DNA of 64,000 bases from an uncultured Thermodesulfobacteriota bacterium (GTDB lineage: Bacteria; Desulfobacterota; WTBG01; CAIYCZ01; CAIRTM01). Under the pieces are notes generated by a model. The model did no database searches. It had not been told where the DNA came from and saw only the letters and a list, made by a program, of their open reading frames with translations. Numbering within the stretch: position 1 is the first letter of the stretch; each line of letters starts with the position of its first letter. This document shows positions 10,855-38,259 of the stretch, piece after piece. The stretch covers positions 24,802 to 88,801 of the forward strand of contig CAZUMW010000009.1 in assembly GCA_964621615.1 (NCBI GenBank), given 5' to 3'. A program made the translations under genes and the position numbers.

Positions 10855-10927
10855 ATCATAACATGATACCATAATTTAATTATAAATAAAGATCAAACTG
10901 GAAGCTGCTTTCGCTTCAGGGGCACAT

Positions 10928-18813: not shown

Positions 18814-20529
18814 TTATTGTTCCGCGCCGAACAGGCCGGGGTTAACAACCAGCCCGGGGGTTGCGCTTACCGGGCCGTGACTGACTGCTTCCCCGAAAAT
18901 ATCGATATCCTCTATTATGTATGAATAGCGCGTCCTGTTTTTCACGCCAGTGTCTATATAGCGATAGCGCGCGCCGGCTGTCTGCGAGCCTCTGGCCGGT
19001 ATCAGCCCGCTGTTAATCTGTGTGTAGCCCCCTTTGTTTTTAGAGCGATATATGTTAAAGCCTGCGCTGTCCACTTCCGATGCGGTGGCCCAGGTGAGAA
19101 CGACTTTTCTGTTGCCCGGCGATGCGTTCAGATCGCTTATCGTTACAAGAGTCTGGCAGGTACAGTCCTGACACTGTCCGGAGGGGCAGTCTGCATCTGA
19201 TTCACAGGTTTCACCGGGCTCGATTACCCCGTTGCCGCACTCAGGCTCCACGCACGTGCAGCCGTCGCAATACCGGCCGGCAGGGCAGTCGGCATCCGAT
19301 TCGCACTCTTCGGCCCCTTCCACTATTCCGTTACCGCAGACCGGCTGAACACACTGACATCCCTGACAGAATTGACCTGCGGGGCAGTCGGTGTCAATTT
19401 CGCACTGCTCTCCCGGGTCGAGGGTGCCGTCCCCGCAGAGCGGCTCGCCTTTGAGCAATGTCCCGCTGCTGCCCGCAATGAATACGGTATCGGCTGAACT
19501 GCCCCACACGCTGTTCAGGTCTGAGCCTGTGCTTGAGGGCATGGCGGCCCAGCTGCTTCCGTCATGGTGCAGAATCGTGCCGCTGTTTCCCACCGCATAC
19601 ACATCGCCTGCTGCAGATCCCCATACGGCATTGAGATTATTACCTGTCGGGGAGTCCATGGTAGACCAGGAAGTACCGTCATAGTGCAGAATCGTTCCGA
19701 ATTCGCCAACAGCGAATATATCATCGGCCGCGCTCCCCCAAATGCCGTAAAGCGTTTCAGTCGATCCGGTTTCAACCGCAGTCCAGTCATACCCTTCTTT
19801 CCAGCCGGTGGTGTGGATAATGTTCGTATGGGTACCGCTTTGACACAGCATCAATGTATTTTTTTTGCACCCGTATTCACCAACCGCGTAGACATTCTGC
19901 TCGGAGCTGCCCCACACGCCGTACAAATCGATGTTGAACATGGTCGGCGGGTCGCTTTCAGCCTTGTTCACATTGCTGTTGTCAATGTCAAGGTACTGCA
20001 TGTTGTAGTAATAGGTAGCAATAAGAAACGAGCCGATAAACAGATTTCCCGGGGCCCATATTTTGTTCACTGAAACGCCCCATAAATCATATATACCCTT
20101 ACCGCTGAGGTTATTTGACGATACTTTTTCCCAGCCGGACCCGTTAAAGTAATAAACAGTTCTGTTCTGCCGGGCGCCGATGAATACGTTGTCTCCGTCT
20201 GCTCCCCATATTGTCTGCAGATCCCGATCAGCTTTGTCCGGGCTGAAATCGGCGAGCCTCCATTCGCGGCCCGTATAGTGCAGTACCGTTCCGGCCCCCG
20301 TCGGGCCGACATCCCCGATCGCGTAAATATTCGATGAGCCGCTTCCCCAGATATCGTTCAAGTCCGTGCCGGATAAATCATACGTCTCAGTCGATGTGCA
20401 CGCAGGGCTGATTGAGCCTACATCGATCTGCACCCATTGAAACGCACAGGTGTTTACCGGCAGAAGCATACAGAAAACAGTAAGTGCGGCTATTGTTGCT
20501 GTATGCGTGTGCGCTGTGTATTTCCGCAT
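18814..20529 (-). CDS. Secreted beta-propeller protein with three Cys-rich repeats and a C-terminal Ig/FN3-like domain
   Basis: Signal peptide; seven [LI]xx[IVL]WG(S)..[IV][YFW]A[VI]G repeats; three CG[DN]G..E.CE.D.DCP.G..C..C.C repeats; tail LTWATASEVDSAGFNIYRS..IEDID..GPVSATP. Confidence 0.85.
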   Translation of the reverse strand: MRKYTAHTHTATIAALTVFCMLLPVNTCAFQWVQIDVGSISPACTSTETYDLSGTDLNDIWGSGSSNIYAIGDVGPTGAGTVLHYTGREWRLADFSPDKADRDLQTIWGADGDNVFIGARQNRTVYYFNGSGWEKVSSNNLSGKGIYDLWGVSVNKIWAPGNLFIGSFLIATYYYNMQYLDIDNSNVNKAESDPPTMFNIDLYGVWGSSEQNVYAVGEYGCKKNTLMLCQSGTHTNIIHTTGWKEGYDWTAVETGSTETLYGIWGSAADDIFAVGEFGTILHYDGTSWSTMDSPTGNNLNAVWGSAAGDVYAVGNSGTILHHDGSSWAAMPSSTGSDLNSVWGSSADTVFIAGSSGTLLKGEPLCGDGTLDPGEQCEIDTDCPAGQFCQGCQCVQPVCGNGIVEGAEECESDADCPAGRYCDGCTCVEPECGNGVIEPGETCESDADCPSGQCQDCTCQTLVTISDLNASPGNRKVVLTWATASEVDSAGFNIYRSKNKGGYTQINSGLIPARGSQTAGARYRYIDTGVKNRTRYSYIIEDIDIFGEAVSHGPVSATPGLVVNPGLFGAEQ

Positions 20530-20631
20530 TTTTAGTACCTCTTTCTCATACGTATTGATTAATGTAATGGTTAGCGGGCCTAACGCTTGACACATGTAAA
20601 ATAATTGTAATACCGAACTATTGCTAGTGTA

Positions 20632-24433: not shown

Positions 24434-24579
24434 AGCATGAAGCGCGGAGGCGGTGCTTTTGCTGTATTCGCATACATGCCGGGTACCCGCAGTGTGAGCC
24501 GGGCGCCCAGTGCCTGCAGCGCGGGCGCGTATGACAACGAGGCCGGACTGTGTGCCTCACAGGTGCGGAGAAACACACA

Positions 24580-25191
24580 ATGCCTGCCGGCTGTGACGAA
24601 AAAGAGCTTCTGAATCAGTGTATAGCAGGCCGTGCCGATGCCTGGCACCGGTTCATCGAGCGCTATTCCTCCCTTATTTATTTTGCAATTCATGCCGTCA
24701 TGAAAAGCAGGTCTCCCGGCTCCCCGGGTGATGAAATTAACGATCTGCACAATGATGTGCTCCTGTCGCTGATGGAGAAAAACGGCCGAAAGCTCCGCCA
24801 GTATGAGGGCAAAAACGGCTGCACGGTATCCACCTGGATCAGGGTTATCGCAGTGCGGATGACAATCGACCATTTGAGAAAACAAAAAGATGAGATTTCT
24901 GTTTCAGATCAGCAGCCCCGGCCCCAGCCCGAACCTGCCGCCGACGGGGGCTCACGCATGCTGGATGCGCTCGAGGAGAAGGAAAAACAGGCGATCATGG
25001 ATGAGCTTATCGCAGAGCTCCCTGCGCGGGACCGCTTTTTTTTACGGCTTTTTTATTATGAACGGGTCCCGACCCCCCAGATAGCATCGCTTCTCAAGAC
25101 GACAAACAATGCCGTGTACAGCAAAGCACACTATATTAAAGATAAGCTCAAGGCGGCGGTGGAAAAAAAAGTTTCACAGAAAAAGCGCTAG
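24580..25191 (+). CDS. ECF-type RNA polymerase sigma-70 factor
   Basis: Region 2 (AWHRFIERY, DLHNDVLL, TWIRVIAVRMTIDHLRK) and region 4 (LPARDRFFLRLFYY..IASLL..VYS..LK) only; about 203 aa; GGAG RBS. Confidence 0.92.
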   Translation: MPAGCDEKELLNQCIAGRADAWHRFIERYSSLIYFAIHAVMKSRSPGSPGDEINDLHNDVLLSLMEKNGRKLRQYEGKNGCTVSTWIRVIAVRMTIDHLRKQKDEISVSDQQPRPQPEPAADGGSRMLDALEEKEKQAIMDELIAELPARDRFFLRLFYYERVPTPQIASLLKTTNNAVYSKAHYIKDKLKAAVEKKVSQKKR

Positions 25192-25263
25192 CCGCCGTCT
25201 ATAAGTGTGTACAAGAACTGCTGCGCACATTCAGGGTACCGCTCCCGGGGGATTATTGCTTCC

Positions 25264-25965
25264 ATGGAACAGCTTATTGCCGGTTATTTTAAAAAAAACA
25301 AGGAAAATCAAAATGCGCTGCCCTGTCCGTCAGAGGAGACCCTCTGGGACTATATGAGCGGAAGGCTTCCGGCACGGGCGTCGGAACAGGTTGCGCAGCA
25401 TTTGTGCAGCTGCGATCTGTGTGCCCGGACTCTGGTTGCCGCGGCTGAAACCGAGCCGCCTGCCCTTGAGGAGGTGCCGGGCCAGGGATGTGCTCCCCTG
25501 GTCAGCAGGCGGGTTCTGCAGCAGATCCCCCAGCCGGTGAGCGCCGGATGGCGGGGATGGGGGCGCGCCCTCGCAGAGCGTATCCGCGAAGCGGCGGGCG
25601 CCGCTGCCGGGTGGCTGTATCCCGCCTCTGCCGAGTATGTGTATGTGCGCGGAAGAACGCACGTCATATCAAAAAACCTTGTTGTTCTTGAAAAAGAATT
25701 TAAAGATATAACGCTTGAAATCGAGCTGGAAAAGACCGATACACAGAGTACCGATATAAAAGTGTATGCCCGGCGCCCGGGAATCGGAGCCCCGGCGGAC
25801 GGCCTGAGAATAAACCTGTACGCCGGCGATGCGGAAACGGCTTCCTGTGTGACGCACCGGGGGGAGGCGCTTTTTGAGCAGCTCGGATTCGGTGAATACC
25901 GGCTTCGGGTGATGGAGAACGAAAAAAACCGGGGTGAAGTGTTACTTACCATCAAGGAGCAATAG
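25264..25965 (+). CDS. Soluble zf-HC2 (ZAS) anti-sigma factor with a C-terminal Ig-like domain
   Basis: CPSEETLWDYMSG..HLCSCDLC (HxxxCxxC); no TM segment; beta-rich C-terminus (LRINLY..ALFEQLGFGEYRL); directly follows the sigma gene. Confidence 0.85.
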   Translation: MEQLIAGYFKKNKENQNALPCPSEETLWDYMSGRLPARASEQVAQHLCSCDLCARTLVAAAETEPPALEEVPGQGCAPLVSRRVLQQIPQPVSAGWRGWGRALAERIREAAGAAAGWLYPASAEYVYVRGRTHVISKNLVVLEKEFKDITLEIELEKTDTQSTDIKVYARRPGIGAPADGLRINLYAGDAETASCVTHRGEALFEQLGFGEYRLRVMENEKNRGEVLLTIKEQ

Positions 25966-25967
25966 CC

Positions 25968-28900
25968 ATGGCCGAGGACAGAGAGCAAAAACAGACCCGG
26001 GGTGCTTCAGCAGAGCCCGCCGGCATAGAGCAGCTGCTTGCCGACCGTCAGAAAATAGACGAGGAGCTGAAAGCGAAGTTTTCCCAGGACGTGACGGTTA
26101 TGTTCACGGACATAAAGGGCTCTACCAGCTTTTTTGAAAGCTACGGCGATATTGAAGGGCGCCTGATGGTTCAAAAGCACAATGATCTGCTGTTTCCCGT
26201 TGTGCAGAAATTCGGCGGCAGGGTTATAAAGACAATCGGGGATGCCATTATGGCGGCTTTTGACAGCCCCGAAGCGGCGGTACGCGCGGGCATTGAGATG
26301 CAGAGCAACCTGCAGGAGCACAACCGCGGGAAAAAGGATAAAAAAGATCAGATTCATGTAAGAATAGGCATTAATACGGGCGAGGGCCTGGTCGAGAAAA
26401 GCGACATATTCGGCGATGTTGTCAATGTTGCCGCGCGGGTCGAATCGCTGACCGAGCCGGATGAAATTCTCGTTTCCGCACCCGTATACGACCAGGTGCG
26501 CTCAACGGATGACATTATCTGCCGCTATGCACAGCAGACCCGGGTGAAGGGCAAAGAGGAGCCTATGGATGTGTATCGGGTTATATGGGCCGAAGAGGAG
26601 TGCGCTGCGGGCGTGACCCGCGGCGCCGCGTCTGCGGCAAAGGCTGCGCGGAAGCGGGCCGCCGACCGGCGCCGGCTTGAAATCGATATCAGCAGAGACG
26701 GAACCACCATCAAAGTCTCTGCAGCCGAAAAGAGCCGGCAGACCCAGAGCACTATCAGGCCCTATGAAGAAATGCAGGTATCGATGGTCGATGTCGATCA
26801 GCGCTGCAGCGAAATCACCCAGCTTTTGAACAGGGCGAACACCCGCGGGAAGGTTTCTAAAGACATTTTAAACAAGCTTCGGGATGTGGGCAACGTGCTG
26901 TTTGACATGCTGCTGACAGCACAGACAAAGGATGCTTTGCGAAAGGCCCGCGTCGACGATCTGATTTTTCACATCGAGGACAGCCTGGTGCAGATACCCT
27001 GGGAGCTGCTTTACGACGGGGACCAGTTTCTCTGCCAGAAGTTCAATATGGGCAGGCTGGTAAAAACCAGGCGCCAGATATACGATATCAGGCAGCGAAG
27101 CCTTTCCCGCCCCCTTAAAATGCTCATTGTCTCAGACCCGCGCGGGGACCTTGCGAATTCCTCAAAAGAGGGCCGGGCCATCAGGGAACACCTCGACAGG
27201 CATGCGGAGCTGATCAGCGCCAATCAGCGAAGCGGCCAGATCACGACATCCTATCTTATGGAAAAAATCCGGAATTTTGACATCGTTCACTATGCCGGCC
27301 ACGCCGACTATGATCACGAGGATCCCTCACACAGCGGGTGGCTGCTTGCGGGCGGCAAGTTTACCTCTGCAGACATTGTCAAGCTGGCGGGCGGGCGCCC
27401 CATGCCTGCGCTTGTGTTCTGCAATGCCTGCCAGTCTGGACAGACAGAGGAGTGGAAGCTCGGCGCGCAGTACAGCCGGGAAATATTCGGCCTGGCAAAT
27501 GCCTTTCTGCTGGCCGGCGTTCAGCATTATATCGGCACCTTCTGGGAGATACTCGATGAGCCGGGCGCACACTTTGCGGAGGCATTTTACCGGTCGGTTC
27601 TAGACGGCGCCACAATCGGGGAAGCCGTGAGGCAGGCCCGCGCGGAGCTGATCAAGCAGCACGGTGAGGACACGATCGTGTGGGCCAGCTATATGCTGTA
27701 CGGCGATCCGGGAATGAGCTATTGTGATTTTGACGATGAGCAGGAAGCTGAGGAGCCGCATGATGCACAGCCCCGCGTCAGGGAAGCCGCACAGGTGCGG
27801 GGTGCGCCCAGCGACGTTGTTGCCTTTGAGACGCCGCAGCCGCGCGCTTCGCGGAGCAAATACGTTATTGCCGCAGCCGCGGCGATTGTTGCGTGCGCTG
27901 CAGCTCTTCTGCTTGCCGGACGCTTTTTCAGCTCCGGAACAGATCCCTACAGTGCGGCATATGCGCAGCTGCAGGCACATAAAGTAGAGGATGCACGAAA
28001 AGCCTTTTCAGGGCTTGCCGAAGATGACCCGCGCCGCTACGAGGGCCTTGCCGCCGTCCGCTATGAGCTCGGCGATTATGACGGATCATTTACATTAAGC
28101 TCCCGCGCTCTGGAGATAGCGCCTCACAGCGTGTATGCGCATGTGCTGCAGGGGCGGGTGCTGCTGTCCCGCGGCCGTGAGGCTGACGCGCTCCAGCACT
28201 TTCAGGCAGCAGCCGGCAAAAGCGGCGGCATCTCCTGGCAGAAGGCAGAGGCGCTGAACGGAATCGCCCGCATCTGGTCCGAGTGGGGAGATACGCAGAA
28301 AGCCATGCAGTTTTACGCCCGCGCGGCAGAGCTTAACCCGAGGAGCCCGGAAATTGTTACAAACCGTGCATTTGCCATGCAGAAAACGGGCAACACCGCC
28401 GGAGCTGTGTCCGGCTTTAAGGACGCCGCCGGCCTTAACCCGCAGGATCCCTATGCATCGGTATTCCTTGCCGAAGCGCTGAAAAAGCAGAAAGCCGAGC
28501 AGGACAGCAAGCGCCGTGAGCGCATCGACAAGCTGGTTGATGAGCTTGCGGAAAACTTTGATGCCGGCGGCGCCGCGGCCGCGCAGCAGGACACGTGGAC
28601 GTCCCGGCCGCTCACCCTCAGCTTCATAAACATAACCGGCAAAGGCGCGCCGGCGCAGCGCGAGGGCGCTGACGAGTTTTTTCTCATGCAGCTGAGCGCG
28701 CTGCTGCAGGGAAGCGGCCGGGCTCAGGTTGTCGAGCGCGAGCTTCTGGAGCAGGTGCTTCAGGAGTTGAAGCTGAGCGCAACCGATCTGGTCAATCCCG
28801 ACACCGCGGTTCGCCTGGGCAGGATTCTTTCCGCCCGCGTTATTGCCACCGGATCTATTATGCGCTATAGTAATCAAATTCAGGTCAGCCTGCGCCTCAC

Positions 28901-29267
28901 CGATACTGAAACAACCGCGCTGAAGGGCGTTATCGCGGAAAGCGGTACGGACCCTGCAGAGCTTGCCCGGCAGATCGCCGGGGAAATAACACAGCAGCTC
29001 ACGAAAGCATACCCGATCCGCGGCAGCGTTGTCGAGCTCGACGGGAATCAGCTGCTGCTCGATATCGGCAGCGCTCTGGGGGTAACGGAGGGCATGGAGT
29101 TTACGGTCCTTGACGAGGTTCGCCCGGAGAGCGGCGGGCGTATGCGGCTGCGCCCTCTGGGAACAGCGCGGATTGCATCTGTTGCTCCTGAATACGCCTA
29201 TGCCGAGCCCTCTGGGAACAGCGGGTCTTTCAAACCGGGATTGAAGGTAAAGCAGCTGGTGCAGTAA
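25968..29267 (+). CDS. Membrane protein: class III adenylate cyclase - CHAT protease - TM - TPR - CsgG-like - FlgT_C-like
   Basis: Cyclase motifs MFTDIKGST, KTIGDAIMA, RIGINTG, DIFGDVVNVAARVE; CHAT motifs PWELL, IVHYAGH, VFCNAC, AFLLAGV..IGTFW; TM VIAAAAAIVACAAALLLA; TPRs; VVERELLEQVLQELKL..LGRILSA. Confidence 0.9.
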   Translation: MAEDREQKQTRGASAEPAGIEQLLADRQKIDEELKAKFSQDVTVMFTDIKGSTSFFESYGDIEGRLMVQKHNDLLFPVVQKFGGRVIKTIGDAIMAAFDSPEAAVRAGIEMQSNLQEHNRGKKDKKDQIHVRIGINTGEGLVEKSDIFGDVVNVAARVESLTEPDEILVSAPVYDQVRSTDDIICRYAQQTRVKGKEEPMDVYRVIWAEEECAAGVTRGAASAAKAARKRAADRRRLEIDISRDGTTIKVSAAEKSRQTQSTIRPYEEMQVSMVDVDQRCSEITQLLNRANTRGKVSKDILNKLRDVGNVLFDMLLTAQTKDALRKARVDDLIFHIEDSLVQIPWELLYDGDQFLCQKFNMGRLVKTRRQIYDIRQRSLSRPLKMLIVSDPRGDLANSSKEGRAIREHLDRHAELISANQRSGQITTSYLMEKIRNFDIVHYAGHADYDHEDPSHSGWLLAGGKFTSADIVKLAGGRPMPALVFCNACQSGQTEEWKLGAQYSREIFGLANAFLLAGVQHYIGTFWEILDEPGAHFAEAFYRSVLDGATIGEAVRQARAELIKQHGEDTIVWASYMLYGDPGMSYCDFDDEQEAEEPHDAQPRVREAAQVRGAPSDVVAFETPQPRASRSKYVIAAAAAIVACAAALLLAGRFFSSGTDPYSAAYAQLQAHKVEDARKAFSGLAEDDPRRYEGLAAVRYELGDYDGSFTLSSRALEIAPHSVYAHVLQGRVLLSRGREADALQHFQAAAGKSGGISWQKAEALNGIARIWSEWGDTQKAMQFYARAAELNPRSPEIVTNRAFAMQKTGNTAGAVSGFKDAAGLNPQDPYASVFLAEALKKQKAEQDSKRRERIDKLVDELAENFDAGGAAAAQQDTWTSRPLTLSFINITGKGAPAQREGADEFFLMQLSALLQGSGRAQVVERELLEQVLQELKLSATDLVNPDTAVRLGRILSARVIATGSIMRYSNQIQVSLRLTDTETTALKGVIAESGTDPAELARQIAGEITQQLTKAYPIRGSVVELDGNQLLLDIGSALGVTEGMEFTVLDEVRPESGGRMRLRPLGTARIASVAPEYAYAEPSGNSGSFKPGLKVKQLVQ

Positions 29268-29525
29268 TGACCGAACGAACATCTCTTTTGTGGAAAAGAA
29301 AGACACCGTAAGGGGTGTGAACCGCTCCTGTGTGGTGATAACGAACGTGATTGGGTCACCGATAACAATAGAAATAAAGAAACAGGAAAACCCGGATAAT
29401 AGGCTGTTTAGTAATTGAGGGCAAAAAAAAAGAGACTGTCACTTATCGGCGGACACGCTTACGCTTTGTCCGCCTTACCTGATATTCACAAACTGATTTC
29501 AGTTATTAAAAAAATTTTTTGAGGG

Positions 29526-31616
29526 GTGACGACGGTGAAAACATACAGAATATTAGCTTTGCTGCTTGCTTCTGCGCTGCTTGTAAGCGCGGTGCCGGGG
29601 TGCAATACACCGCCTGACCCGAAGTACCGGAAGGACGGAACGCAGTACGGGGTCACGGACGGTTTGTTCCGCGACCGGTGGTGGAATTATTACGAGCGGG
29701 GCCTTTCCTTTTCCGACGGGGAATTCTGGAAAGAAGCCGCAGAGGATTTCCGGGAAGCGCTCAGGCAGCGGGACAGCGACCAGCGCCTCGCCCGGACCTA
29801 CGGAATGCACTTTACCGATTATTTTCCGCACCGGGATCTGGGGGTTGCCCTGTATCACCTGGGCCGGTTCGATGAGGCCCGGCGCGAGCTTGAGACATCG
29901 CTTGCCGCTGTAGAAACCGCGAAGGCGAAATTTTATCTGAACCGGGTCAGGAAGGCAATCATCGCCGCAAGCAATGCCGATACCGCCCGCCCCTCGATAG
30001 AGGTTTCCTCCGTTCCCGCCGATGCGGTCAGCAACAGCTTCAGCATGACGCTCGAGGGTGAAGTGGCCGATGACACATATGCAGAAAAAGTTGCGGTCAA
30101 CGAAGATCCCGTTTTTGTTGAGCTGTCTGCAAAGCGGATTCCCTTTAGCAAGAAGATCAGGCTCAAAAAAGGGCTCAATGAAATAAAAATTAAATCCACG
30201 GACCTCATGGGCAAGAAATCCGAAAAAACGGTCACTGTCTACGGCGACTATCAGGGGCCCCTTGTCAATGTCAGCAATTACGCCGACGGGCAGAAGACCG
30301 CACAGGGAAGGGTCGTCCTGCACGGATCGCTTGCAGACGCAACCGGCATCACTACCTTTAAAATCAACGAGCAGGTCCTTGCCTATAACAAAGAGCGGGA
30401 AGTGGACTTCACGTTTGCGGTGAACCTCGAGCAGGGCTCAAATGAAATCATGCTTGCGGCGACGGATACAGCGGGCAACACAACGCGCGGAACGCTCAAT
30501 CTGGTTTATGTGCCGCGCCTTGCAGAAGAGCCGGCTCCTGAGAAACCATTGTATGCAGGCGAGCCGATCCGGGTGGCCCTTCAGGGCTCGGGCGTGCTCG
30601 ACACAGGTCAGCACCGGCTGTATGCCGCAGCGCGGCCGGGGGGGGCGGCAGGCTCCTTCAGGCTGAATCTGAAAGACCTGGCGGAGACGCAGACCGTCTA
30701 TTACAAAACAATGTATATTGACGGCAGCGTTACCGGGCGCCATCCGGTTGAATCGGTTTCGGTTAACGGCGATCCGCTGATGATCATTCCGGGTAAAACA
30801 ATTTATTTTAACGAGCTTGTCGAGCTCGATGAGGGTGAAAACACGCTGAGGATAACCGTTGAAGATGCGCAGGGGAACACCGAATCCCGGACCGTCACGA
30901 TCGTCAGGCGGGTTCCCTCTGTTCATCAGGTCGACTCGCGTATGAGCATTGCCATTCTGCCGTTTGAGAAAAAGGGTGAAATCACCCCGGCCTCGGATAT
31001 TATCTATGATAATCTTATCAGCTCCTTTTTTGACCAGAACCGCTTTCATATCGTCAGCCGCGGCGAAGAGCTGGAATCAGCCCTCAGAGAGCAGAAGCTG
31101 AGCCGGACCGATCTCGTGGACAAGAGCGCCGCCGTGGAGCTGGGCAGGCTGGTCGCCGCCGAGGCGGTGCTGATGGGCTCCATTCGCGAAACCGCGGATG
31201 CCGTGGAAATCTATGCCCGGATGGTCAACACGGAAACGTCATCGCTGCTTGAGGTGAAGGACGTGTACGGTCAGGACAAATCCCTGGCAAGCCTGCAGTA
31301 TCTGACAAACGGCCTTGCGCTGAAGTTTGTGCACAGCTTTCCGCTGGTCGAGGGTATGGTGCTCAAGGTCGACGGCGACACGATATATGCTGACTTCGGT
31401 ACCGATCAGCAGATTAAAAAGGAAATGAAATTTATCGTGTTCCGGGAGGGGGAGAAAATAATTCACCCCGTAACCGGCCGGGTGCTCGGCAGCAACACCG
31501 AAGAGCTCGGCGTTGCGCGAGTGGTGAATGTGTTTGAGGATATGTCGCTCGGCAAGCTGGTTGCTGATATTGATCACGGGCTTATTAAACAAAAGGACCT
31601 CATTATTACAAAATAG
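29526..31616 (+). CDS. Lipoprotein: TPR - Ig-like repeats - CsgG-like - FlgT_C-like
   Basis: Lipobox VPGC; TPR (YFPHRDLGVALYHLG); Ig repeats with GLNEIKI / GSNEIML / GENTLRI; SIAILPFE..EQKLSRTDLVD..LGRLVAA; EGMVLKVDGD. Confidence 0.85.
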   Translation: MTTVKTYRILALLLASALLVSAVPGCNTPPDPKYRKDGTQYGVTDGLFRDRWWNYYERGLSFSDGEFWKEAAEDFREALRQRDSDQRLARTYGMHFTDYFPHRDLGVALYHLGRFDEARRELETSLAAVETAKAKFYLNRVRKAIIAASNADTARPSIEVSSVPADAVSNSFSMTLEGEVADDTYAEKVAVNEDPVFVELSAKRIPFSKKIRLKKGLNEIKIKSTDLMGKKSEKTVTVYGDYQGPLVNVSNYADGQKTAQGRVVLHGSLADATGITTFKINEQVLAYNKEREVDFTFAVNLEQGSNEIMLAATDTAGNTTRGTLNLVYVPRLAEEPAPEKPLYAGEPIRVALQGSGVLDTGQHRLYAAARPGGAAGSFRLNLKDLAETQTVYYKTMYIDGSVTGRHPVESVSVNGDPLMIIPGKTIYFNELVELDEGENTLRITVEDAQGNTESRTVTIVRRVPSVHQVDSRMSIAILPFEKKGEITPASDIIYDNLISSFFDQNRFHIVSRGEELESALREQKLSRTDLVDKSAAVELGRLVAAEAVLMGSIRETADAVEIYARMVNTETSSLLEVKDVYGQDKSLASLQYLTNGLALKFVHSFPLVEGMVLKVDGDTIYADFGTDQQIKKEMKFIVFREGEKIIHPVTGRVLGSNTEELGVARVVNVFEDMSLGKLVADIDHGLIKQKDLIITK

Positions 31617-31640
31617 CGGCTGTTTCAAGCGCGCCTTTAA

Positions 31641-31670
31641 AAAACCCGCCCGCGTACGGGCGGGTTTTTT
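31641..31670. terminator. Bidirectional Rho-independent terminator
   Basis: AAAACCCGCCCG-CGTA-CGGGCGGGTTTTTT. Confidence 0.88.
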
Positions 31671-31734
31671 TCTGTAAATCCTGCATGCCCTTTTGTGTCC
31701 CGCTCCCGGCTTTAAACTCCTGTTAAACTTCAGC

Positions 31735-31764
31735 TTGACACATACTGCATTAGCTACTAATAAT
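31735..31764 (+). promoter_or_regulatory. Sigma70-type promoter for the FadL-like gene
   Basis: TTGACA-N18-AATAAT (or N17-TAATAA). Confidence 0.55.
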
Positions 31765-31811
31765 GGTAAAAATTCCTCACTTTTTACTATTGATACGGCC
31801 CGGGGGCTCCA

Positions 31812-33191
31812 ATGAAAAAATGGTATATCCTTTTTGCCGCATCGGCAATATGTATGTGCCTGATTTCGTCTGCAGCGGCACAGACTCAGGTTGCCGGCTT
31901 CACCATACCGCGCATTAAAGTCGCTTCCTCTCCCAATCCTGTCGGCTCCGGGGCGCGGGCACAGGGAATGGGCGGAGCGTTTATCGCCGTCGCAGATGAT
32001 GCCACAGCGGCTTCCTGGAACCCCGGGGGGCTTATTCAGCTGGAGCGGCCGGAGGTTTCATTTGTGGTGAACATGACCCACCGCAGGAAAGACCTGCATT
32101 TTTCCGAGCACCCCGGCTCGCCCGATACCCATGAAATATATCGAGAGGATTTGAATTATTTCAGCGTTGCATTTCCGTTCCGCGCATTTGATAAAAACAT
32201 GATCGTATCGCTCAACTATCAGCGCCTGTATGATTTCTACGACGATATGGAGTTTGATTTTGAGTATAACACCCTGTCGCCCGGCTCGTTTTTCCACAGC
32301 CGGATACAGACCGACTATCGCCAGCGCGGCGGGCTCAAGGCAGTGTCGCCCGCCTTTGCCATACAGCTCACCCCGCGGTTTTCCGTCGGTATTACCTTCA
32401 ACATCTGGACTGACAACCTCGGCTTTGATAACGAGTGGAAAAATGTCTATGAATACCGCGTGACCGGCTCCGCGTTTCTCCATGCAAATCAATCGCTGAT
32501 TAAATTCCGGGGCAGATCCGTTGACTGGCAGGAGAATGAAAATTTTGAAGGCTTTAACATGAACATCGGCTTTCTCTGGGATATAAACAGCAAAGTAACC
32601 ATCGGCGGAGTGCTCAAAACCCCGTTTACCGCCGACATCGACAGAACCACCTACCGGTCAACCTATCAGGCATACGGGACGACACCGCCGCTGCGGGTTA
32701 TCCCGCAGGTGAGCAAAGAAAGCATACAGATGCACTTTCCGCTGTCGTTCGGGATCGGCATAGCGCTTCGCCTTTCAGACAGGCTCACCCTGTCCGGGGA
32801 TGTCTATTATACGGACTGGTCTGATTTCTGGATACGATCGGGCGGCGTAAAAATAACCCCCATAACCAGCGGCCGCCGCAGCGACGCTCATGTGCACGAT
32901 ACGACGCAGGTGCGCCTTGGCTGCGAGTATCTGTTTATCCTTGAAAAAACAATTGTTCCGCTCAGGTTCGGCGCCTTTTATGACCCGCAGCCCACGCGGA
33001 AAAACCCCGATGATTATTTCGGCATTACGGCCGGTACGGGAGTGATGTTGGGCCCGCTGGTTATCGATTGCTGCTACATTTACCGGTGGGGCGACGATGT
33101 TATGGGCGATTCCATTCAGCTTTCCGGCGGCAGCGTTGAAGCTGATGCGGATCAGCACCGGTTTCTGCTGTCGGTTATATATCATTTTTAG
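31812..33191 (+). CDS. FadL/OmpP1/TodX-family outer-membrane beta-barrel
   Basis: Signal peptide; hatch motif GSGARAQGMGGAFIAVADDATAASWNPGGL; amphipathic strands; terminal aromatic residue (YHF). Confidence 0.87.
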   Translation: MKKWYILFAASAICMCLISSAAAQTQVAGFTIPRIKVASSPNPVGSGARAQGMGGAFIAVADDATAASWNPGGLIQLERPEVSFVVNMTHRRKDLHFSEHPGSPDTHEIYREDLNYFSVAFPFRAFDKNMIVSLNYQRLYDFYDDMEFDFEYNTLSPGSFFHSRIQTDYRQRGGLKAVSPAFAIQLTPRFSVGITFNIWTDNLGFDNEWKNVYEYRVTGSAFLHANQSLIKFRGRSVDWQENENFEGFNMNIGFLWDINSKVTIGGVLKTPFTADIDRTTYRSTYQAYGTTPPLRVIPQVSKESIQMHFPLSFGIGIALRLSDRLTLSGDVYYTDWSDFWIRSGGVKITPITSGRRSDAHVHDTTQVRLGCEYLFILEKTIVPLRFGAFYDPQPTRKNPDDYFGITAGTGVMLGPLVIDCCYIYRWGDDVMGDSIQLSGGSVEADADQHRFLLSVIYHF

Positions 33192-33290: not shown

Positions 33291-33938
33291 ATGATGCCTG
33301 AAAACGAGCCCACATTACCTGTCCGGTTTCAAAGCGAAATACAGGCGTTTGTGCAAAGGGATGCGCATTCACCGCCGCCCCGCGGAGCCGTGCTGTTCGT
33401 GGGCAGCAGCATAGTGCGCTTCTGGGACTCGCTCGCCGCCGATATGTCTCCGCTTCCGGTAATAAACCGCGGATTCGGCGGTGCCTGCACCTGGGAGGTG
33501 CTGCACTATATGGACAAAATTGTCACCCCCTGCGATCCGCGCATTATCGCCTACTACTGCGGAAGCAATGATATCGGATTTGATGCCACAGCAGCTGATA
33601 TTTACCGGCGCTTTCACCTGTTTGTTCAGCGGTGCCGTGAGAGAACCGCCTGCTGCGGTATTTATTTTATATCAATTATCGCAGCTCCTCAGAAGCGCCA
33701 TCGATGGGGTGAGGTTGCAGCAGCAAACAGCATGGTCGAGCGCTATGCAGCGCATGCGCCCGTGGTCGGCTTTATCGATGTGAACCCGGCGCTGTGCAGC
33801 GGCGCTTCCGGGCCGCGCGCGGACCTTTTTGCCCCGGACGGGCTTCATCTGACACCGGCAGCTTACCGGAAGCTTTCTGCGGTGATCAAACCTGTTATCG
33901 AGAACAGGTGGAATGCGATATGCCGAAGCGGCTCATGA
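33291..33938 (+). CDS. SGNH/GDSL hydrolase
   Basis: FVGSS, INRGFGG, YCGSND and DGLH blocks. Confidence 0.9.
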   Translation: MMPENEPTLPVRFQSEIQAFVQRDAHSPPPRGAVLFVGSSIVRFWDSLAADMSPLPVINRGFGGACTWEVLHYMDKIVTPCDPRIIAYYCGSNDIGFDATAADIYRRFHLFVQRCRERTACCGIYFISIIAAPQKRHRWGEVAAANSMVERYAAHAPVVGFIDVNPALCSGASGPRADLFAPDGLHLTPAAYRKLSAVIKPVIENRWNAICRSGS

Positions 33939-34870
33939 TTATTATTGGAGGGGCCTGTCAGGCGGTGCCGCCTGTCTGCGGGCTGCAGCGGATGCGCTTA
34001 TTTGTTCTGCTGGCAGGCGGTGCTGCGGTGTGTTTCCTGTGCGGGTGCGCCGCGCAGAGCCGCCTTTTTGTGCTTACCGGCATGGAGCGATCATTTCCCG
34101 CGGAAACGATTGTGCGCACCGAAGACGGCACAGCGGTGTCCTTTGAAATCATGATCGACGATTTACAAACCGCCGGGGTGCTGTATATCGGCGAGCAGCA
34201 TGTAAATCCTTACCACCACCGGGCTCAGCGGCAGATCATGGAAGCGCTGGCCCGGACGCGCCGCGTTATTGTCGGTATGGAAATGTTTGCCGCTCCCTAT
34301 CAGCATGTGCTTGATGAGTGGTCGCAGGGAGCGCTGGACCGGCAATCATTTATTGAAAAAACCCACTGGTATGCAAACTGGAAATACGATTTTGATTTAT
34401 ATGCCGGCATACTCGAGACCATCAGCGAACATCATATTCCGCTTGTCGGCCTGAATGTGCCGTTTGACATTCCCGCCAAGGTAGCGGTCGGCGGCCTGTC
34501 GAACCTGCTCGATGCCGATCGCGTTCATCTGCCGGATGTTATCGATGTATCGCAGCAGCTCCACCGCGCCTACGTTAAAAAGGTTTTTGAGCGCCATCAC
34601 ATGAGGGGGCGCGACAACTTCGAGTATTTTTATCAGGCCCAGTGCGTGTGGGAGGAGGCGATGGCGGAGAGGGTTGCATCATGCCTTAACGGCGATGAAA
34701 TAATTATCGTGCTTGCCGGCAACGGTCACATCATCAAGGGGTTCGGCATACCCGACCGCGTGCGCCGGCGCCGCGCGGTGTCCAGCAGGACGGTGTATTT
34801 GACCACCCCGGGCCAGGAGGCGGAACGCGATTATGCCGATTATATCTGGATAACGCAGAAAGCACATTGA
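33920..34870 (+). CDS. ChaN-family (DUF399) lipoprotein
   Basis: Lipobox LCGC; LYIGEQHVNPYHH, GMEMF, QCVWEEAMA, LAGNGH. Start uncertain. Confidence 0.85.
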   Translation: MPKRLMIIIGGACQAVPPVCGLQRMRLFVLLAGGAAVCFLCGCAAQSRLFVLTGMERSFPAETIVRTEDGTAVSFEIMIDDLQTAGVLYIGEQHVNPYHHRAQRQIMEALARTRRVIVGMEMFAAPYQHVLDEWSQGALDRQSFIEKTHWYANWKYDFDLYAGILETISEHHIPLVGLNVPFDIPAKVAVGGLSNLLDADRVHLPDVIDVSQQLHRAYVKKVFERHHMRGRDNFEYFYQAQCVWEEAMAERVASCLNGDEIIIVLAGNGHIIKGFGIPDRVRRRRAVSSRTVYLTTPGQEAERDYADYIWITQKAH

Positions 34871-35186: not shown

Positions 35187-36410
35187 ATGAACACCAATGC
35201 TGACCGAATAAGCCCGCGCGAGCGGCGGGTGCTGCTGGCGACCTGCTTTACACACTTCATGAGCCATGTAAATGTGCTTGCCTTTCCTGCGCTTGTCCTG
35301 CCGCTTTCCCGAAGCCTGGATATGGAGATTAGCGGTGTGATGGATCTTTCTTTTTTGATGTACCTGCTGTACGGGCTTTCGGCGATTATGTGGGGTGCTG
35401 CGGCAGACCGGTGGAGCGCCTCTTCGCTGCTTCGCCTGTTCCCGGCCGGCTGTGCGCTGAGCTGCTTTGCTGCGGCATGGGCGATCGGCTCGCCCCGCCA
35501 GCTGAGCATCTGCCTTGCAGCGCTGGGCTTTTTTTCCGGCATCTATCATCCGGTGGGGCTGGGATACATTTCTCAAACCATTCGCCGCGTAAGCCGGGGG
35601 TTTGCCTGGAACGGTATTTTCGGCAATCTCGGCGTTGCGCTTGCCCCGCTTGCAGCCGGTGCGCTGGTATGGCTGCACGGCCCCGCGGCCTGCTATGTTT
35701 TCCTTGGTTCGGTCAACCTGCTGGGGCTCTTTTTCGTGCGCGGCCTTCGTGATCCCGGTACCGGTATGCACGAAGACGAACCGGTGCCGGCGCCGTCTTC
35801 CGGGCATTTGAAGGGATTCGTTATTCTGCTGGGGATTATGATGCTGGGCGGTATCGTGTACCGGGGGGCGACGCTTGTGCTGCCCGCCTTTGTCGAGCTG
35901 AGAAGCATGTCCGCCGTTCGATCCCTTTTTTCATTTGACGGGACGGCCGAGTCCGTAACCTTTATCGCCACGGTCATTGCCTCAGTGATTTATCTGTTCG
36001 GGATTCTCGGCCAGTATTCCGGCGGGCGCGTTGCCGAGCGCTATGATCTCAGGTACTGCTATCTGTGCTTTCATCTCGTGCCCGCCTGTGCAGCTTTCTG
36101 CATCTCGGCTGCATATGGGTTCCCGCTTGTGGGCTGCGCGGCTGTGTACTTTTTCTTTCTTCTGGGGATGCAGCCTATTGAGAACACGCTGGTTGCCCGG
36201 CTTGCATCCGATGCTTTTCGGCACTCAGCCTATGGGGCAAAATTTGTGCTGACATTCGGCGTCGGCTCCCTGTCCGTGAAAATGATTTCAGTCATAGAGC
36301 ACCGCTATGGTATGGCGCCCGTGTTTGTAATGCTCGGCGCGGTTTCCTGCCTGCTTGTCATGGGAATCCTGCTTTTGATTTCACGGACCCGCCCTCAGAT
36401 GTCGTCCTGA
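35187..36410 (+). CDS. MFS transporter
   Basis: About 12 TM segments; GAAADRWS, SGIYHPVG, GGRVAERY. Confidence 0.92.
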   Translation: MNTNADRISPRERRVLLATCFTHFMSHVNVLAFPALVLPLSRSLDMEISGVMDLSFLMYLLYGLSAIMWGAAADRWSASSLLRLFPAGCALSCFAAAWAIGSPRQLSICLAALGFFSGIYHPVGLGYISQTIRRVSRGFAWNGIFGNLGVALAPLAAGALVWLHGPAACYVFLGSVNLLGLFFVRGLRDPGTGMHEDEPVPAPSSGHLKGFVILLGIMMLGGIVYRGATLVLPAFVELRSMSAVRSLFSFDGTAESVTFIATVIASVIYLFGILGQYSGGRVAERYDLRYCYLCFHLVPACAAFCISAAYGFPLVGCAAVYFFFLLGMQPIENTLVARLASDAFRHSAYGAKFVLTFGVGSLSVKMISVIEHRYGMAPVFVMLGAVSCLLVMGILLLISRTRPQMSS

Positions 36411-36504
36411 TTTCCCGAACGCCTCTGAAGAAAGTTGGAAAAAATATTTTTTACATTTGAATTGATATCAAACGTGTCCACAATACATTAAAGCAATAAA
36501 CAAC

Positions 36505-36546
36505 AGCCGGTTGCGGGGGCTTTGCAGAGCCCCGCCCGAACCGGCT
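36505..36546. other. GC-rich imperfect hairpin in an AT-rich spacer
   Basis: AGCCGGTT-GCGGGGGCT..AGCCCCGC-CCG-AACCGGCT. Confidence 0.5.
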
Positions 36547-36696
36547 TCGTTACATTATTTTGGACACCGGTGAATTGATATAGATTGTTTGTTGCCTATG
36601 CAATGATAATATTGAAATTTTTTATTTTTTATATTATTGGTGTTAATTGATAAACAATCGTGAAAAACGTTCGTATTTTTCAGACTGATATGTCGT

Positions 36697-37278
36697 ATGA
36701 ATTTATCTGTACGGATCTCCAGTGCAAATGATGTGCCCTGCATAATTAAAGATTATGGTCATTTAAATATTCTTTTCAGGATGACCTACGGCAGGTATGT
36801 GCTTAAACGGGAATATTATGCCTACAAAAAACTTTCAGGGCTTGAAGGTATAACAGAGTGTCTTGGTTTCAAACGGCCCGGTGCGCTTGCCTTCAAACCC
36901 ATTCCCGGAAAAACGCTCAGCCGTTTTAAACGGGGTGAGGTGGCGCCCGTTGTATTTGAACGGCTTGAATCACTGCTTGCGAATATCCATTCCAGGGGTG
37001 TTGCTCACGGTGATATTCACCGGTCAAATATAATGATTGCCGAGAACGGCAGGGTCTATATTATCGACTTTGCCTCTGCGGTTACTTCCGGTGACCCGGA
37101 GAATCCACATTTTTTATTCACGATTTTCAGGATGCTCGATATAAATGCCCTGAAACGTATAAAATCACGATATCTTATGCAGCATTGCCCGAAGCCGGAG
37201 GGGTTCATTGGCAAGTGTTACCGTATTGCACGGCGAATCAAATCAAAAACAAAAAAAATAAAGCGGCTTTTATTCTGA
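36697..37278 (+). CDS. Small protein-kinase-fold enzyme (RIO1/Kdo/LPS-kinase-like)
   Basis: IIKDY, RE..AY..L, HSRGVAHGDIHRSNIMI..YIIDFA; AT-rich. Confidence 0.8.
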   Translation: MNLSVRISSANDVPCIIKDYGHLNILFRMTYGRYVLKREYYAYKKLSGLEGITECLGFKRPGALAFKPIPGKTLSRFKRGEVAPVVFERLESLLANIHSRGVAHGDIHRSNIMIAENGRVYIIDFASAVTSGDPENPHFLFTIFRMLDINALKRIKSRYLMQHCPKPEGFIGKCYRIARRIKSKTKKIKRLLF

Positions 37279-37317
37279 ATTTCATAGTTTGGATATTTTT
37301 CCTCAGGAGGCTATGGG

Positions 37318-37893
37318 ATGCTGCCTGGTATAGCTAAAAAAGTCAATACAATTTTCAACAACAAAACAGTAAGAAAAGTGCTGTTAAAGTGTCGTTACCC
37401 CCTGTTTTTTGCCTTTGCGCTCCTTACGCTTGGCTACATAAAACGTGAATGGTTTATACCTGCTGTTTTGGTTTCTTTCACTGGCACATGTATTCAGTGC
37501 TGGTGTTTCGCTACCCTGGAGAAAAACAAGATCATTTGCTGGAAAGGGCCGTATCTGCTGGTGAGAAACCCAATGTACATCGGCCGCTATTTTATCATTT
37601 TCGGGTTTTTGCTACTGCTCGGCAATATATGGATTTTGATACTGTTTGCAATACTCTATTACTTTTATATGGTTAACCGTGTGCAGCGGGAAGAGAACAA
37701 ATTGAAAAGTATTTTCGGCGAAGCCTATGAAGAGTACTGCAATAAGGTTAACCGCTTTATGCCTTCTTTGAAAAATTACGACCACACGCAGTTTTTTCAG
37801 TTTTGCCTTACAACCTTCCTGCGCAACAACGGGCACTGGAATTTTACGTTGGTCCTTGCGGCACTTCTCAGCGCCTTTATCATAGTGAAATAA
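37318..37893 (+). CDS. Isoprenylcysteine carboxyl methyltransferase / PEMT-family membrane methyltransferase
   Basis: GPYLLVRNPMYIG, REENKLKSIFGEAYEEYCNKVNRF; AT-rich. Confidence 0.87.
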   Translation: MLPGIAKKVNTIFNNKTVRKVLLKCRYPLFFAFALLTLGYIKREWFIPAVLVSFTGTCIQCWCFATLEKNKIICWKGPYLLVRNPMYIGRYFIIFGFLLLLGNIWILILFAILYYFYMVNRVQREENKLKSIFGEAYEEYCNKVNRFMPSLKNYDHTQFFQFCLTTFLRNNGHWNFTLVLAALLSAFIIVK

Positions 37894-38259
37894 TATGTTC
37901 TCATAGATAGTCATGGCAGCAGGCGCGGGCCTTTTGTTGCTGGTGGCCGGTTTGCGAACAGCTGTTTTCTGACAGGCAGGAGCGCGGCGCATATCCATCG
38001 CAATATAGTGGTATTATTCATGTTGTCCATCAGCTTTTTTTTGTGCTTTTACCTTCTGAAAACCTCAAAAGAAGAATCGCGTCAGCCGCTTTGATCTTTT
38101 CGCCCCAGTTTGCAACAGCGATCCAGATCACAAAAATGTTCTCACCTTCAGGTTTTGATTTACAATAAAGGAATCCGTACAGGGTGCGCTTCCCAACCTG
38201 TTATGAATGTGCTATTTAGTAAAATAAATTCAATCTCACCACAGCACCTGTAATAACAC

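Follow-up and report, generated by a model that had tools for sequence, protein, structure and literature searches.

A candidate receptor-type proteolytic switch for an ECF sigma factor: a cyclase-CHAT membrane protein encoded beside a soluble zinc-binding anti-sigma, away from CRISPR

Can a caspase-like protease release a sigma factor when no CRISPR effector is at hand to switch it on? The question is raised by a locus in a 64,000-nucleotide stretch of DNA (the window; positions 24,802 to 88,801 of contig CAZUMW010000009.1, GenBank assembly GCA_964621615.1) from an uncultured Thermodesulfobacteriota bacterium. A first-pass annotation had read the locus as a cascade across the whole envelope, built of a sigma factor of the extracytoplasmic function (ECF) type, a soluble zinc-binding anti-sigma (ZAS) protein, an adenylate cyclase-CHAT protease, a CsgG-like lipoprotein and a FadL-like barrel, and proposed that CHAT, activated by an envelope signal, cuts the anti-sigma and frees the sigma factor. 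We found all five genes as co-oriented open reading frames (ORFs) on the + strand, within window positions 24550-33191, with Pfam or NCBIfam matches to the domains named. The close coupling that had been noted is also there: the last base of the anti-sigma stop codon is 25965 and the ATG of the CHAT gene follows at 25968, leaving a gap of 2 nt.

We think it probable, on the evidence set out below, that the locus encodes a receptor-type regulated-proteolysis switch, in which a CHAT domain carried by an envelope receptor would cut the soluble anti-sigma and so free the ECF sigma factor, with no part played by CRISPR. Among the readings that we considered this one is best supported, because the genes adjoin one another across divergent lineages, the catalytic dyad of CHAT is invariant, an arginine motif in the anti-sigma is invariant too, and no CRISPR was seen. 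The window contains no CRISPR array and no Rfam match, and we detected no cas domains in 35 of its larger ORFs scanned against Pfam, a set that takes in most, not all, of the ORFs of at least 220 residues. The idea of the first-pass annotation thus stands as far as linkage, dyad, arginine motif and the missing array carry it; the cleavage itself we infer.

The protease lies in the product of the CHAT gene (25968..29267, + strand), a protein of 1099 residues that Pfam matches, alignments and AlphaFold 2 (AF2) models describe as a putative single-pass membrane receptor. From N to C terminus it comprises a class III adenylate cyclase, a disordered linker, a pre-CHAT region with the CHAT domain, a transmembrane (TM) helix, tetratricopeptide repeats (TPR), a CsgG/LpoB-like domain and a small beta domain. 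An AF2 model of residues 1-620 (predicted TM-score 0.80) separates the cyclase (39-206), the disordered linker (212-231) and pre-CHAT plus CHAT (236-585), with a disordered loop at 490-507 just past the catalytic Cys. Pre-CHAT and CHAT together span 26673..27722 (+ strand), and the CHAT domain matches PF12770 with 141 bits (6.3e-41). The dyad H445 (27300-27302) and C488 (27429-27431) is invariant in alignments of 18, 12 and 62 sequences, cyclase-less variants included; here and below, receptor conservation was read from alignments of 18 and 62 homologs at 39-73% identity. This is the His-Cys dyad of clan CD, and proteolytic activity is predicted from it. PDB sequence searches with the CHAT and periplasmic domains returned little of use, their best match being another CHAT protein, 8tl0, at E = 0.008 with a profile. 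The TM helix (residues 632-651; 27861..27920, + strand) reaches a hydropathy of 2.57 over 19 residues and is the sole such hydrophobic segment in the protein. We predict an N-in, C-out topology that would place the N-terminal 630 residues in the cytoplasm, because R/K-rich residues precede the helix and because of the nature of the enzymes on that side.

Beyond the membrane, the predicted periplasmic sensor part (27945..29264, + strand) consists of TPR (27945-28577; TPR_19, 3.5e-10), the CsgG/LpoB-like domain (28605-29012; CsgG, 7.8e-8, partial; LpoB, 1e-4) and the C-terminal beta domain (29013-29264). The 'CsgG-like' label of the first-pass annotation needs narrowing. The CsgG profile match covers positions 45-105 of 210 only and LpoB matches the same region, so that the domain is better described as of the TolB-N/LpoB/CsgG type than as a CsgG channel. 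We ruled out a CsgG curli secretion channel on that partial coverage, on whole-protein scores of 32 and 29 bits, and on the lack of curli genes in the window. The 3' end of the receptor gene also holds a 31-nt direct repeat (29147-29232; GCTGCGCCCTCTGGGAACAGCGCGGATTGCA), in two copies that are 81% identical and 55 nt apart.

At its N terminus the receptor carries a fully intact adenylate cyclase that the first-pass cascade had left unexplained. The domain (residues 36-207; 26073..26588, + strand) matches Guanylate_cyc at 1.4e-24 (87 bits). Invariance, or conservation of 90% or more, holds for its metal-binding residues D48 and D92, its adenine-specifying residues K88 and D146 and its transition-state residues N153 and R157. 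The domain thus has the residues expected of a class III adenylate cyclase, from which activity is predicted, and the K88/D146 pair speaks for ATP as the substrate and against pyrimidine nucleotides. Foldseek matches to the 620-residue receptor model were dominated by cyclases, and the cyclase model aligned with the Mycobacterium avium adenylyl cyclase Ma1120 at a TM-score of 0.93 and 35% identity. Between cyclase and CHAT runs the linker (26589..26672, + strand), which at predicted local distance difference test (pLDDT) values below 50 (212-231) contains the sequence V216-T217-R218-G219, with R218 encoded at 26619-26621. A motif [VT]-R-[GSA] stands at a fixed offset past the cyclase in 62 of 108 homologs, compared with 9.7 +/- 3.0 in shuffled linkers, a control that leaves shared ancestry in place. 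Among the 46 homologs without it, 29 of the 30 listed carry an Arg in related context (TRR, KRS, [VL]R[RK]) at about the same offset. This suggests R218 as a candidate self-cleavage site that would free or regulate the cyclase, which we regard as a lead and no finding.

Directly upstream lies the proposed substrate. The anti-sigma gene (25264..25965, + strand; alternative GTG start at 25207) encodes 233 residues from the ATG at 25264, from which we number the protein; the database gene call, P0121, has the same 233 residues, and the long reading has 252. Its motif C-x24-H-x3-C-x2-C is nearly perfectly kept among 69 unique locus-derived sequences (C21 in 99%, H46, C50 and C53 in 100%). Pfam zf-HC2 matches the window protein weakly (16.8 bits, under the 22.2 cut-off), and several homologs carry the match. 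By ligand motif and predicted N-terminal helical domain the protein conforms to the zinc-binding class I type of anti-sigma. No TM segment was found in it (maximum 19-residue hydropathy 1.06), nor a convincing one among the 69 homologs. An AF2 model built from a 19-sequence input (mean pLDDT 77) shows a three-helix bundle at 24-62, a low-confidence linker with two helices that drops below pLDDT 50 at 124-128, and a C-terminal nine-strand beta-sandwich beginning at residue 131 (131-230; pLDDT above 90). Foldseek searches with this model returned generic Ig-like sandwiches only; ChrR stood at rank 21.

Arg129 (R148 in the long ORF; codon 25648..25650, + strand), in the motif Y-V-R-G, follows directly on the segment of lowest confidence and stands just ahead of the first strand. 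It is present in all 69 locus-derived homologs, in the context [P/A/Y]-[V/I]-R-[G/S], with V or I before it in 57/69 and G or S after it in 66/69, and zinc ligands aside it is the sole fully invariant residue in the N-terminal two-thirds of the protein. Among 133 independent representatives of 50%-identity clusters, 131 have it, if a one-residue shift is allowed in six. The receptor linker motif [V/T]-R-[G/S/A] resembles this [V/I]-R-[G/S]. Because a flexible linker meets a folded domain exactly there, in the model, Arg129 sits in the sort of place where site-specific proteases cut, and we propose it as a candidate P1 residue. Separase, which is related to CHAT, likewise has Arg at P1 (PMC11506125), as do metacaspases (bioRxiv 10.1101/2023.06.23.546230).

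The anti-sigma family is fast evolving: a word-indexed search returned just 4-21 relatives, and an exhaustive profile search of 1.84 billion cluster representatives (50% identity) gave 916 matches at E<=1e-10; among the best 150 of these, about 130 are full-length proteins of roughly 210-270 residues and the others are large beta-sandwich repeat proteins. For the receptor, 852 database relatives reach E<=1e-10, of which the best 120 are almost all about 1050-1130 residues long with an identical domain list and, where named, come from Desulfobacterota/Thermodesulfobacteriota metagenomes. The taxonomic range covers Thermodesulfobacteriota, Nitrospirota, Binatia, Tectomicrobia and unclassified lineages, and a cultured carrier is found in Desulfonema magnum strain 4be13.

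The third partner, encoded at 24580..25191 (+ strand; alternative GTG start at 24550), is an ECF-type factor of the sigma-70 family, recognised by TIGR02937 (sigma70-ECF, 74.1 bits against a cut-off of 42.9), Sigma70_r2 and Sigma70_r4_2. With 203-213 residues and regions sigma-2 and sigma-4 only, it has the ECF domain make-up. Against all specific NCBIfam sigma models it scores far under their cut-offs, and the main text of the Casas-Pastor ECF classification makes no mention of CHAT, caspase or cyclase.

The first-pass annotation had named the presence of these genes together in further genomes as a check on its proposal, and the co-occurrence is there. We assembled 99 loci, comprising 13 species-representative genomes, 6 distant homologs retrieved by exact look-up and 80 metagenome loci found with a CHAT-only alignment, and searched their six-frame ORFs with the window proteins and an anti-sigma hidden Markov model. 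Where at least 900 bp of upstream sequence was available, an anti-sigma homolog stood directly 5' of the CHAT gene in 66 of 85 loci, and in 63 of those 66 a sigma homolog lay upstream of it in turn; it is this adjacency that points to the anti-sigma binding and inhibiting its cognate sigma factor. The commonest junctions between anti-sigma and CHAT genes are a 14- or 4-nt overlap or a gap of 2-5 nt, and independent gene calls agree on the adjacency in the six loci compared (L081-L084, L167 and L168). Recurring in dozens of loci and several phyla, the arrangement is far beyond chance. L167 and L168, obtained by separate look-up and standing outside the 99, have divergent anti-sigmas with 24% identity to the window protein, overlapping by 4 nt CHAT genes of 707-726 codons, with a sigma gene upstream.

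Variation among receptors suggests which part of the protein the pair belongs to. Cyclase-less CHAT-TM-CsgG-like proteins (Nitrospirota, Desulfonema magnum and unclassified metagenome-assembled genomes, MAGs) have sigma and anti-sigma directly upstream, as does a cyclase-less CHAT-TM-DUF4384 protein from Binatia. In a Desulfamplus sp. MAG (locus L013, 8197-14538), a CHAT-less cyclase-TPR-CsgG-like paralog adjoins a lipoprotein homolog, without sigma or anti-sigma. The link to the sigma pair thus tracks CHAT, since cyclase-less and partner-swapped loci keep the pair and the CHAT-less locus does not. The conserved core, on this comparison, is the triad of sigma, anti-sigma and CHAT, to which cyclase and envelope partners are lineage-specific additions.

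Several of these loci have features of their own. In the Candidatus Binatia MAG (L007, 9974-14501), periplasmic DUF4384 replaces the CsgG-like domain and the CHAT-TM protein is followed by a second, soluble TPR-CHAT protein of 841 residues. Downstream in L167 (7345-16412) is an 1843-residue protein with 17 LVIVD repeats, a beta-propeller and a legumain-like Peptidase_C13 domain, which may be a second clan-CD protease in the module; in L168 (7248-13993) a large uncharacterised gene follows the CHAT gene. The place of sigma and anti-sigma is taken in L013 by a GAF-domain sigma-54 activator, whose GAF domain could be a cyclic-nucleotide receptor, and in L085 by a response regulator, with a Pup-proteasome gene cluster downstream. 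The receptor homolog of L085 (10001-10600, P0094) is extended ahead of its cyclase by an additional N-terminal domain, helical and some 200 residues long. In L137 (1055-4303) and L149 (2778-6026), which lack sigma and anti-sigma, the gene directly 5' encodes a 1083-residue protein with a zinc ribbon, a Ser/Thr kinase and an FGE-sulfatase-like part.

Two envelope proteins complete the gene set in the window. The lipoprotein (29526..31616, + strand) has a signal peptide with a lipobox (...AVPGC), TPR, three Ig-like domains and a C-terminal module of a CsgG/LpoB-like and a beta domain (Pfam: Glucodextran_B 9e-24, Big_13, CsgG 9.7e-7). That module is paralogous to the periplasmic C-terminal module of the receptor, at 31% identity and E = 1e-20. 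The last gene (31812..33191, + strand) encodes a predicted outer-membrane beta-barrel of the FadL/PorV superfamily, with a signal peptide, a PorV-like N-terminal motif and a C-terminal ...YHF. Its match to Toluene_X/FadL (2.4e-15; 56.4 bits, cut-off 29.7) places it by sequence in the FadL/OMPP1/TodX family, and it scores 46.9 against PorV_fam, under the cut-off. We rejected orthology with FadL (19 against 585), BamG (74.9 against 250) and PorV (18.5 against 250), all with scores under the cut-offs.

Thirty loci are fully flanked, with at least 5 kb on either side; of these, 27 have the lipoprotein, 21 the barrel, 24 the sigma factor and 25 the anti-sigma. The genes stand in at least four different orders: sigma, anti-sigma, CHAT, barrel, lipoprotein; the same with lipoprotein before barrel; barrel, lipoprotein, sigma, anti-sigma, CHAT; and divergent arrangements. 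That the set is retained while its order is shuffled argues for a functional and not merely inherited linkage. In the Desulfobacterota/Nitrospirota branch the lipoprotein and the barrel often accompany the triad; elsewhere other partners take their place.

Gene content, domains, conserved catalytic residues and motifs, gene linkage and predicted disorder at both motifs are what we observe; the physical interactions, the cut and where it falls, what the signal is and which way it runs, and the regulon are what we infer in the following scheme. At rest, the soluble anti-sigma would hold the sigma factor through its zinc-bound three-helix domain, while its C-terminal beta-sandwich probably serves to dock it on the receptor's cytoplasmic part. 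The receptor would sense an envelope signal through its periplasmic TPR and CsgG/LpoB-like domains, in this branch probably as a complex with the lipoprotein's paralogous domain; the FadL/PorV-like barrel may hold the lipoprotein at the outer membrane. Passing the single TM helix, the signal would switch on the cytoplasmic CHAT, which would cut the anti-sigma after the invariant Arg of [V/I]-R-[G/S] at the junction of linker and sandwich. With the anti-sigma remnant lost, the sigma factor would be free for RNA polymerase. The N-terminal adenylate cyclase would provide a second output, cyclic AMP (cAMP), and is perhaps released or regulated by a cut at the linker sequence T-R-G.

A number of observations weigh against such a switch, or against the five genes as its unit. 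About 17 of the 85 loci (~20%) have an intact cyclase-CHAT gene without adjacent sigma and anti-sigma; in L096 and L097 recJ abuts the CHAT gene, where the close relative L082 has the order recJ, sigma, anti-sigma, CHAT. Either CHAT has another substrate or role in such loci, or those genomes carry the pair at some other place. Among the 80 metagenome loci, most are rather closely related (51-78% CHAT identity), so that the locus counts are not counts of independent events, and the CHAT-less comparison is a single locus. The invariant Arg129 might alternatively have a structural role, such as capping the beta-sandwich, or serve in docking. The Csx29 protease of Craspase reportedly cuts after Leu or Met, in which case a P1 Arg is no general rule of CHAT proteases. 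By k-mer and bipartite-motif enumeration in 38-54 unique upstream regions we found no ECF-type promoter shared upstream of sigma, lipoprotein and barrel genes beyond closely related sequences; the words GGTGAT and GATAAC, a candidate motif, were rejected as the 3' coding end of the lipoprotein gene.

Nor do the five genes obviously form a single operon, because 258 bp precede the lipoprotein gene and a terminator and promoter precede the barrel gene. Past the lipoprotein gene comes an intrinsic-terminator-like hairpin with a T-run (31648..31672, + strand; hairpin 31648-31665; GCCCGCGTACGGGCGGGT then TTTTTTT), and ahead of the barrel gene a sigma-70-type promoter-like site (31735..31764, + strand; TTGACA-18-AATAAT, 11/12 matches). 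Given this strong terminator-like hairpin and near-consensus promoter, the barrel of the window's organism is probably transcribed on its own, separately from the other genes. Of the five-part cascade of the first-pass annotation, then, the triad survives as the core; lipoprotein and barrel turn out to be lineage-specific, the barrel probably has its own transcript, and a fifth or so of the loci lack the pair.

Would other mechanisms explain the same genes? One is a partner switch without proteolysis, in which the receptor would bind and sequester, or release, the anti-sigma through its beta-sandwich and CHAT would be only a scaffold or a self-cleaver. The sandwich is indeed highly conserved and modelled at pLDDT above 90, so that it looks like an interaction module, and tight gene coupling would suit any stoichiometric complex. 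The CHAT domain of DdvA, moreover, is in a resting state, its dyad mutants having no phenotype under the conditions tested (PMC11506125). But a pure scaffold would not be expected to keep the His/Cys dyad invariant across more than 60 diverse homologs, and an Arg kept invariant at a disordered junction is what one would sooner expect of a cleavage site; we regard a partner switch as unlikely. The link between protease and sigma factor might otherwise be a loose one: the receptor would serve mainly cAMP signalling, CHAT would process itself or other proteins, and the ZAS anti-sigma would by itself respond to thiol or zinc stress. ZAS domains of the RsrA type are redox switches, and such switching would fit this account, as would the conservation of all six cyclase catalytic residues, the conserved Arg motif in the disordered cyclase-CHAT linker and the roughly 20% of loci that lack the pair and yet have the dyad intact. 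It fits poorly with the cyclase-less receptors that keep sigma and anti-sigma, with the CHAT-less paralog that has no such pair, and with the overlap of anti-sigma stop and CHAT start in most loci. There is also no conserved gene for a cAMP receptor nearby: a Crp-like gene occurs in 1 of the 99 loci (L081, 15994-16698, - strand, a Crp-type regulator with a cyclic-nucleotide-binding domain directly downstream of the module) and is absent from the other 98 and from the window. This account we hold to be rather unlikely as well.

A third possibility is that the locus is an anti-phage or other conflict system akin to Pycsar, CBASS or caspase-type systems, in which the caspase-like protease would act as an effector of abortive infection and the cyclase would generate the signal. 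The cyclase domain does match PycC models (3.3e-13), the CHAT region gives a weak BovA match, and CHAT and ECF sigma genes are associated in conflict systems (PMC8195603). Yet the setting is an ordinary chromosome: pgi and recJ lie upstream of the module, genes for lipopolysaccharide (LPS) synthesis, ClpB and glycogen phosphorylase are close by, and the window further holds an LPS-core kinase, glycosyltransferases, histidine kinases and a TonB receptor, while synteny with recJ is kept in L082, L096 and L101. The PADLOC matches to the cyclase are generic ones; there was none for sigma, anti-sigma or barrel, and for the lipoprotein a weak generic TPR match (E = 0.0094). The K88/D146 pair points to ATP and away from pyrimidine nucleotides, and a periplasmic sensor with envelope partners is joined by no effector with a cyclic-nucleotide-binding domain. 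The locus does not belong to Pycsar, since despite the PycC matches it has no effector gene and its specificity residues are of the ATP type. A defence role seems to us very unlikely, and cleavage of the anti-sigma by the receptor's CHAT remains the account that we prefer.

How new would such a switch be? Proteases that cut a partner and thereby free a sigma factor have precedents in Csx29-Csx30-CASP-sigma, CalpL-CalpT-CalpS and DdvA (PMC10028731, PMC11506125, bioRxiv 10.1101/2023.06.23.546230), and type III CRISPR systems contain protease/anti-sigma/sigma modules of matching logic (PMC10028731, PMC9825189, bioRxiv 10.1101/2023.06.23.546230). In type III-E Craspase (Cas7-11/Csx29/Csx30/Csx31/CASP-sigma), as in our scheme, a cytoplasmic CHAT protease that stays off until a signal comes has been proposed to cut a soluble sigma-binding partner and free an ECF-like sigma factor. 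The activator of Craspase is target-RNA binding by a CRISPR effector, whereas the window protease forms one protein with a membrane receptor and an adenylate cyclase. Against the CASP-sigma model, with its cut-off of 100, the window sigma factor reaches 27.9 bits, and the anti-sigma, being of the ZAS type, has no detectable similarity to the NCBIfam Csx30 families; the likely P1 residue is Arg here and reportedly Leu or Met for Csx30. With that score, with no CRISPR array in the window and no cas domains in the ORFs scanned, we do not place the locus in type III-E Craspase.

The nearest precedent independent of a CRISPR effector is DdvA/DdvS of Myxococcus xanthus, which the first-pass annotation overlooked when it knew of no characterised system of this architecture (PMC11506125). 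It shares with the window locus an ECF sigma factor with a ZAS anti-sigma, a CHAT domain and a single TM helix, and CHAT-driven proteolysis has been proposed as its trigger (PMC11506125). The architecture differs, though. The TPR-CHAT part of DdvA is periplasmic and fused to the anti-sigma, and self-cleavage followed by intramembrane proteolysis by RseP has been proposed (PMC11506125). In the window, CHAT is predicted to lie on the cytoplasmic side of the membrane, on a separate receptor, and the anti-sigma, with neither TM helix nor CHAT, is soluble, so that no intramembrane step would be needed; the locus is not of the DdvA type. The DdvA type is also narrow, being found in Myxococcota and one Comamonas species, compared with hundreds of 50%-identity clusters for the window family.

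Other systems resemble parts of the scheme. CalpL/CalpT/CalpS likewise has a signal-activated protease that cuts a soluble anti-sigma-like protein on an ECF-like sigma factor, but CalpL is a SAVED-Lon protease activated by cyclic oligoadenylate, with neither membrane receptor nor CHAT. The SAVED-CHAT/PCaspase/PCc-sigma system also encodes CHAT and a sigma factor together in a proteolytic cascade (bioRxiv 10.1101/2023.06.23.546230); there, cyclic triadenylate (cA3) activates through SAVED, CHAT cuts a second caspase, and the sigma factor itself is cleaved. Classical regulated intramembrane proteolysis, as in RseA-DegS-RseP and its relatives, runs from envelope signal through anti-sigma proteolysis to ECF sigma release, but its anti-sigma is itself a transmembrane protein cut by periplasmic and intramembrane proteases, whereas here the anti-sigma is cytoplasmic and it is the receptor that would carry the protease across the membrane. 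Receptor-type class III cyclases (Ma1120/Rv1900c-type, CyaB) share the full set of canonical catalytic residues; in the window protein the cyclase stands at the extreme N terminus, with a whole CHAT protease between it and the TM helix. ECF sigma genes adjoin some caspase-containing conflict systems, whose architectures differ (PMC8195603). In our full-text literature searches no paper brought CHAT, adenylate cyclase and sigma factor together, none named CHAT with a class III adenylate cyclase, and we met with no account of this architecture. We judge that regulated proteolysis of anti-sigmas by caspase-like proteases is known, and that the receptor architecture, which is widely distributed, is new.

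Elsewhere in the window, GC content dips to 0.45 at 36001-38000, compared with ~0.55 in the rest. This stretch holds a short kinase-like ORF (36697-37278) with APH, TCAD9 and Pkinase fragments and a PEMT-like methyltransferase (37318-37893), and is perhaps acquired DNA or what is left of a gene. At the thresholds used, Pfam gave no match for two long ORFs, one of 593 residues at 18814-20595 (- strand) and one of 468 at 9466-10872 (- strand). Just past the barrel gene, a GDSL-lipase ORF (33291-33938) and an ORF for haem-binding ChaN (33794-34870) overlap by 145 nt as listed; the true start of the latter is probably further downstream, because the ChaN domain begins at residue 120.

ECF sigma factors are one of the main signalling routes of bacteria, and are activated by proteolysis of membrane anti-sigmas, by partner switching, by kinases and through sigma extensions. 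If our reading is right, ECF activation would have one more mode, by a cytoplasmic caspase-like protease that is part of a transmembrane receptor and acts on a soluble anti-sigma, and this mode would be a common one, given the 916 anti-sigma matches, some of them beta-sandwich repeat proteins, and the 852 receptor relatives. It would also give a non-CRISPR context to the CHAT-to-sigma logic of type III CRISPR systems, and it prompts one to ask why a single receptor should unite a protease with a cAMP synthase. Going further, and tentatively, these proteins could form a large and hitherto unrecognised class of 'receptor caspases', in which CHAT, on an envelope signal, would cut a ZAS anti-sigma at V-R-G and also its own linker at T-R-G, so as to free or switch the cyclase, with an ECF regulon and cAMP as outputs, and from which, as an older housekeeping design, CRISPR-associated modules such as Craspase may have been derived; we put this forward as possible and still doubtful.

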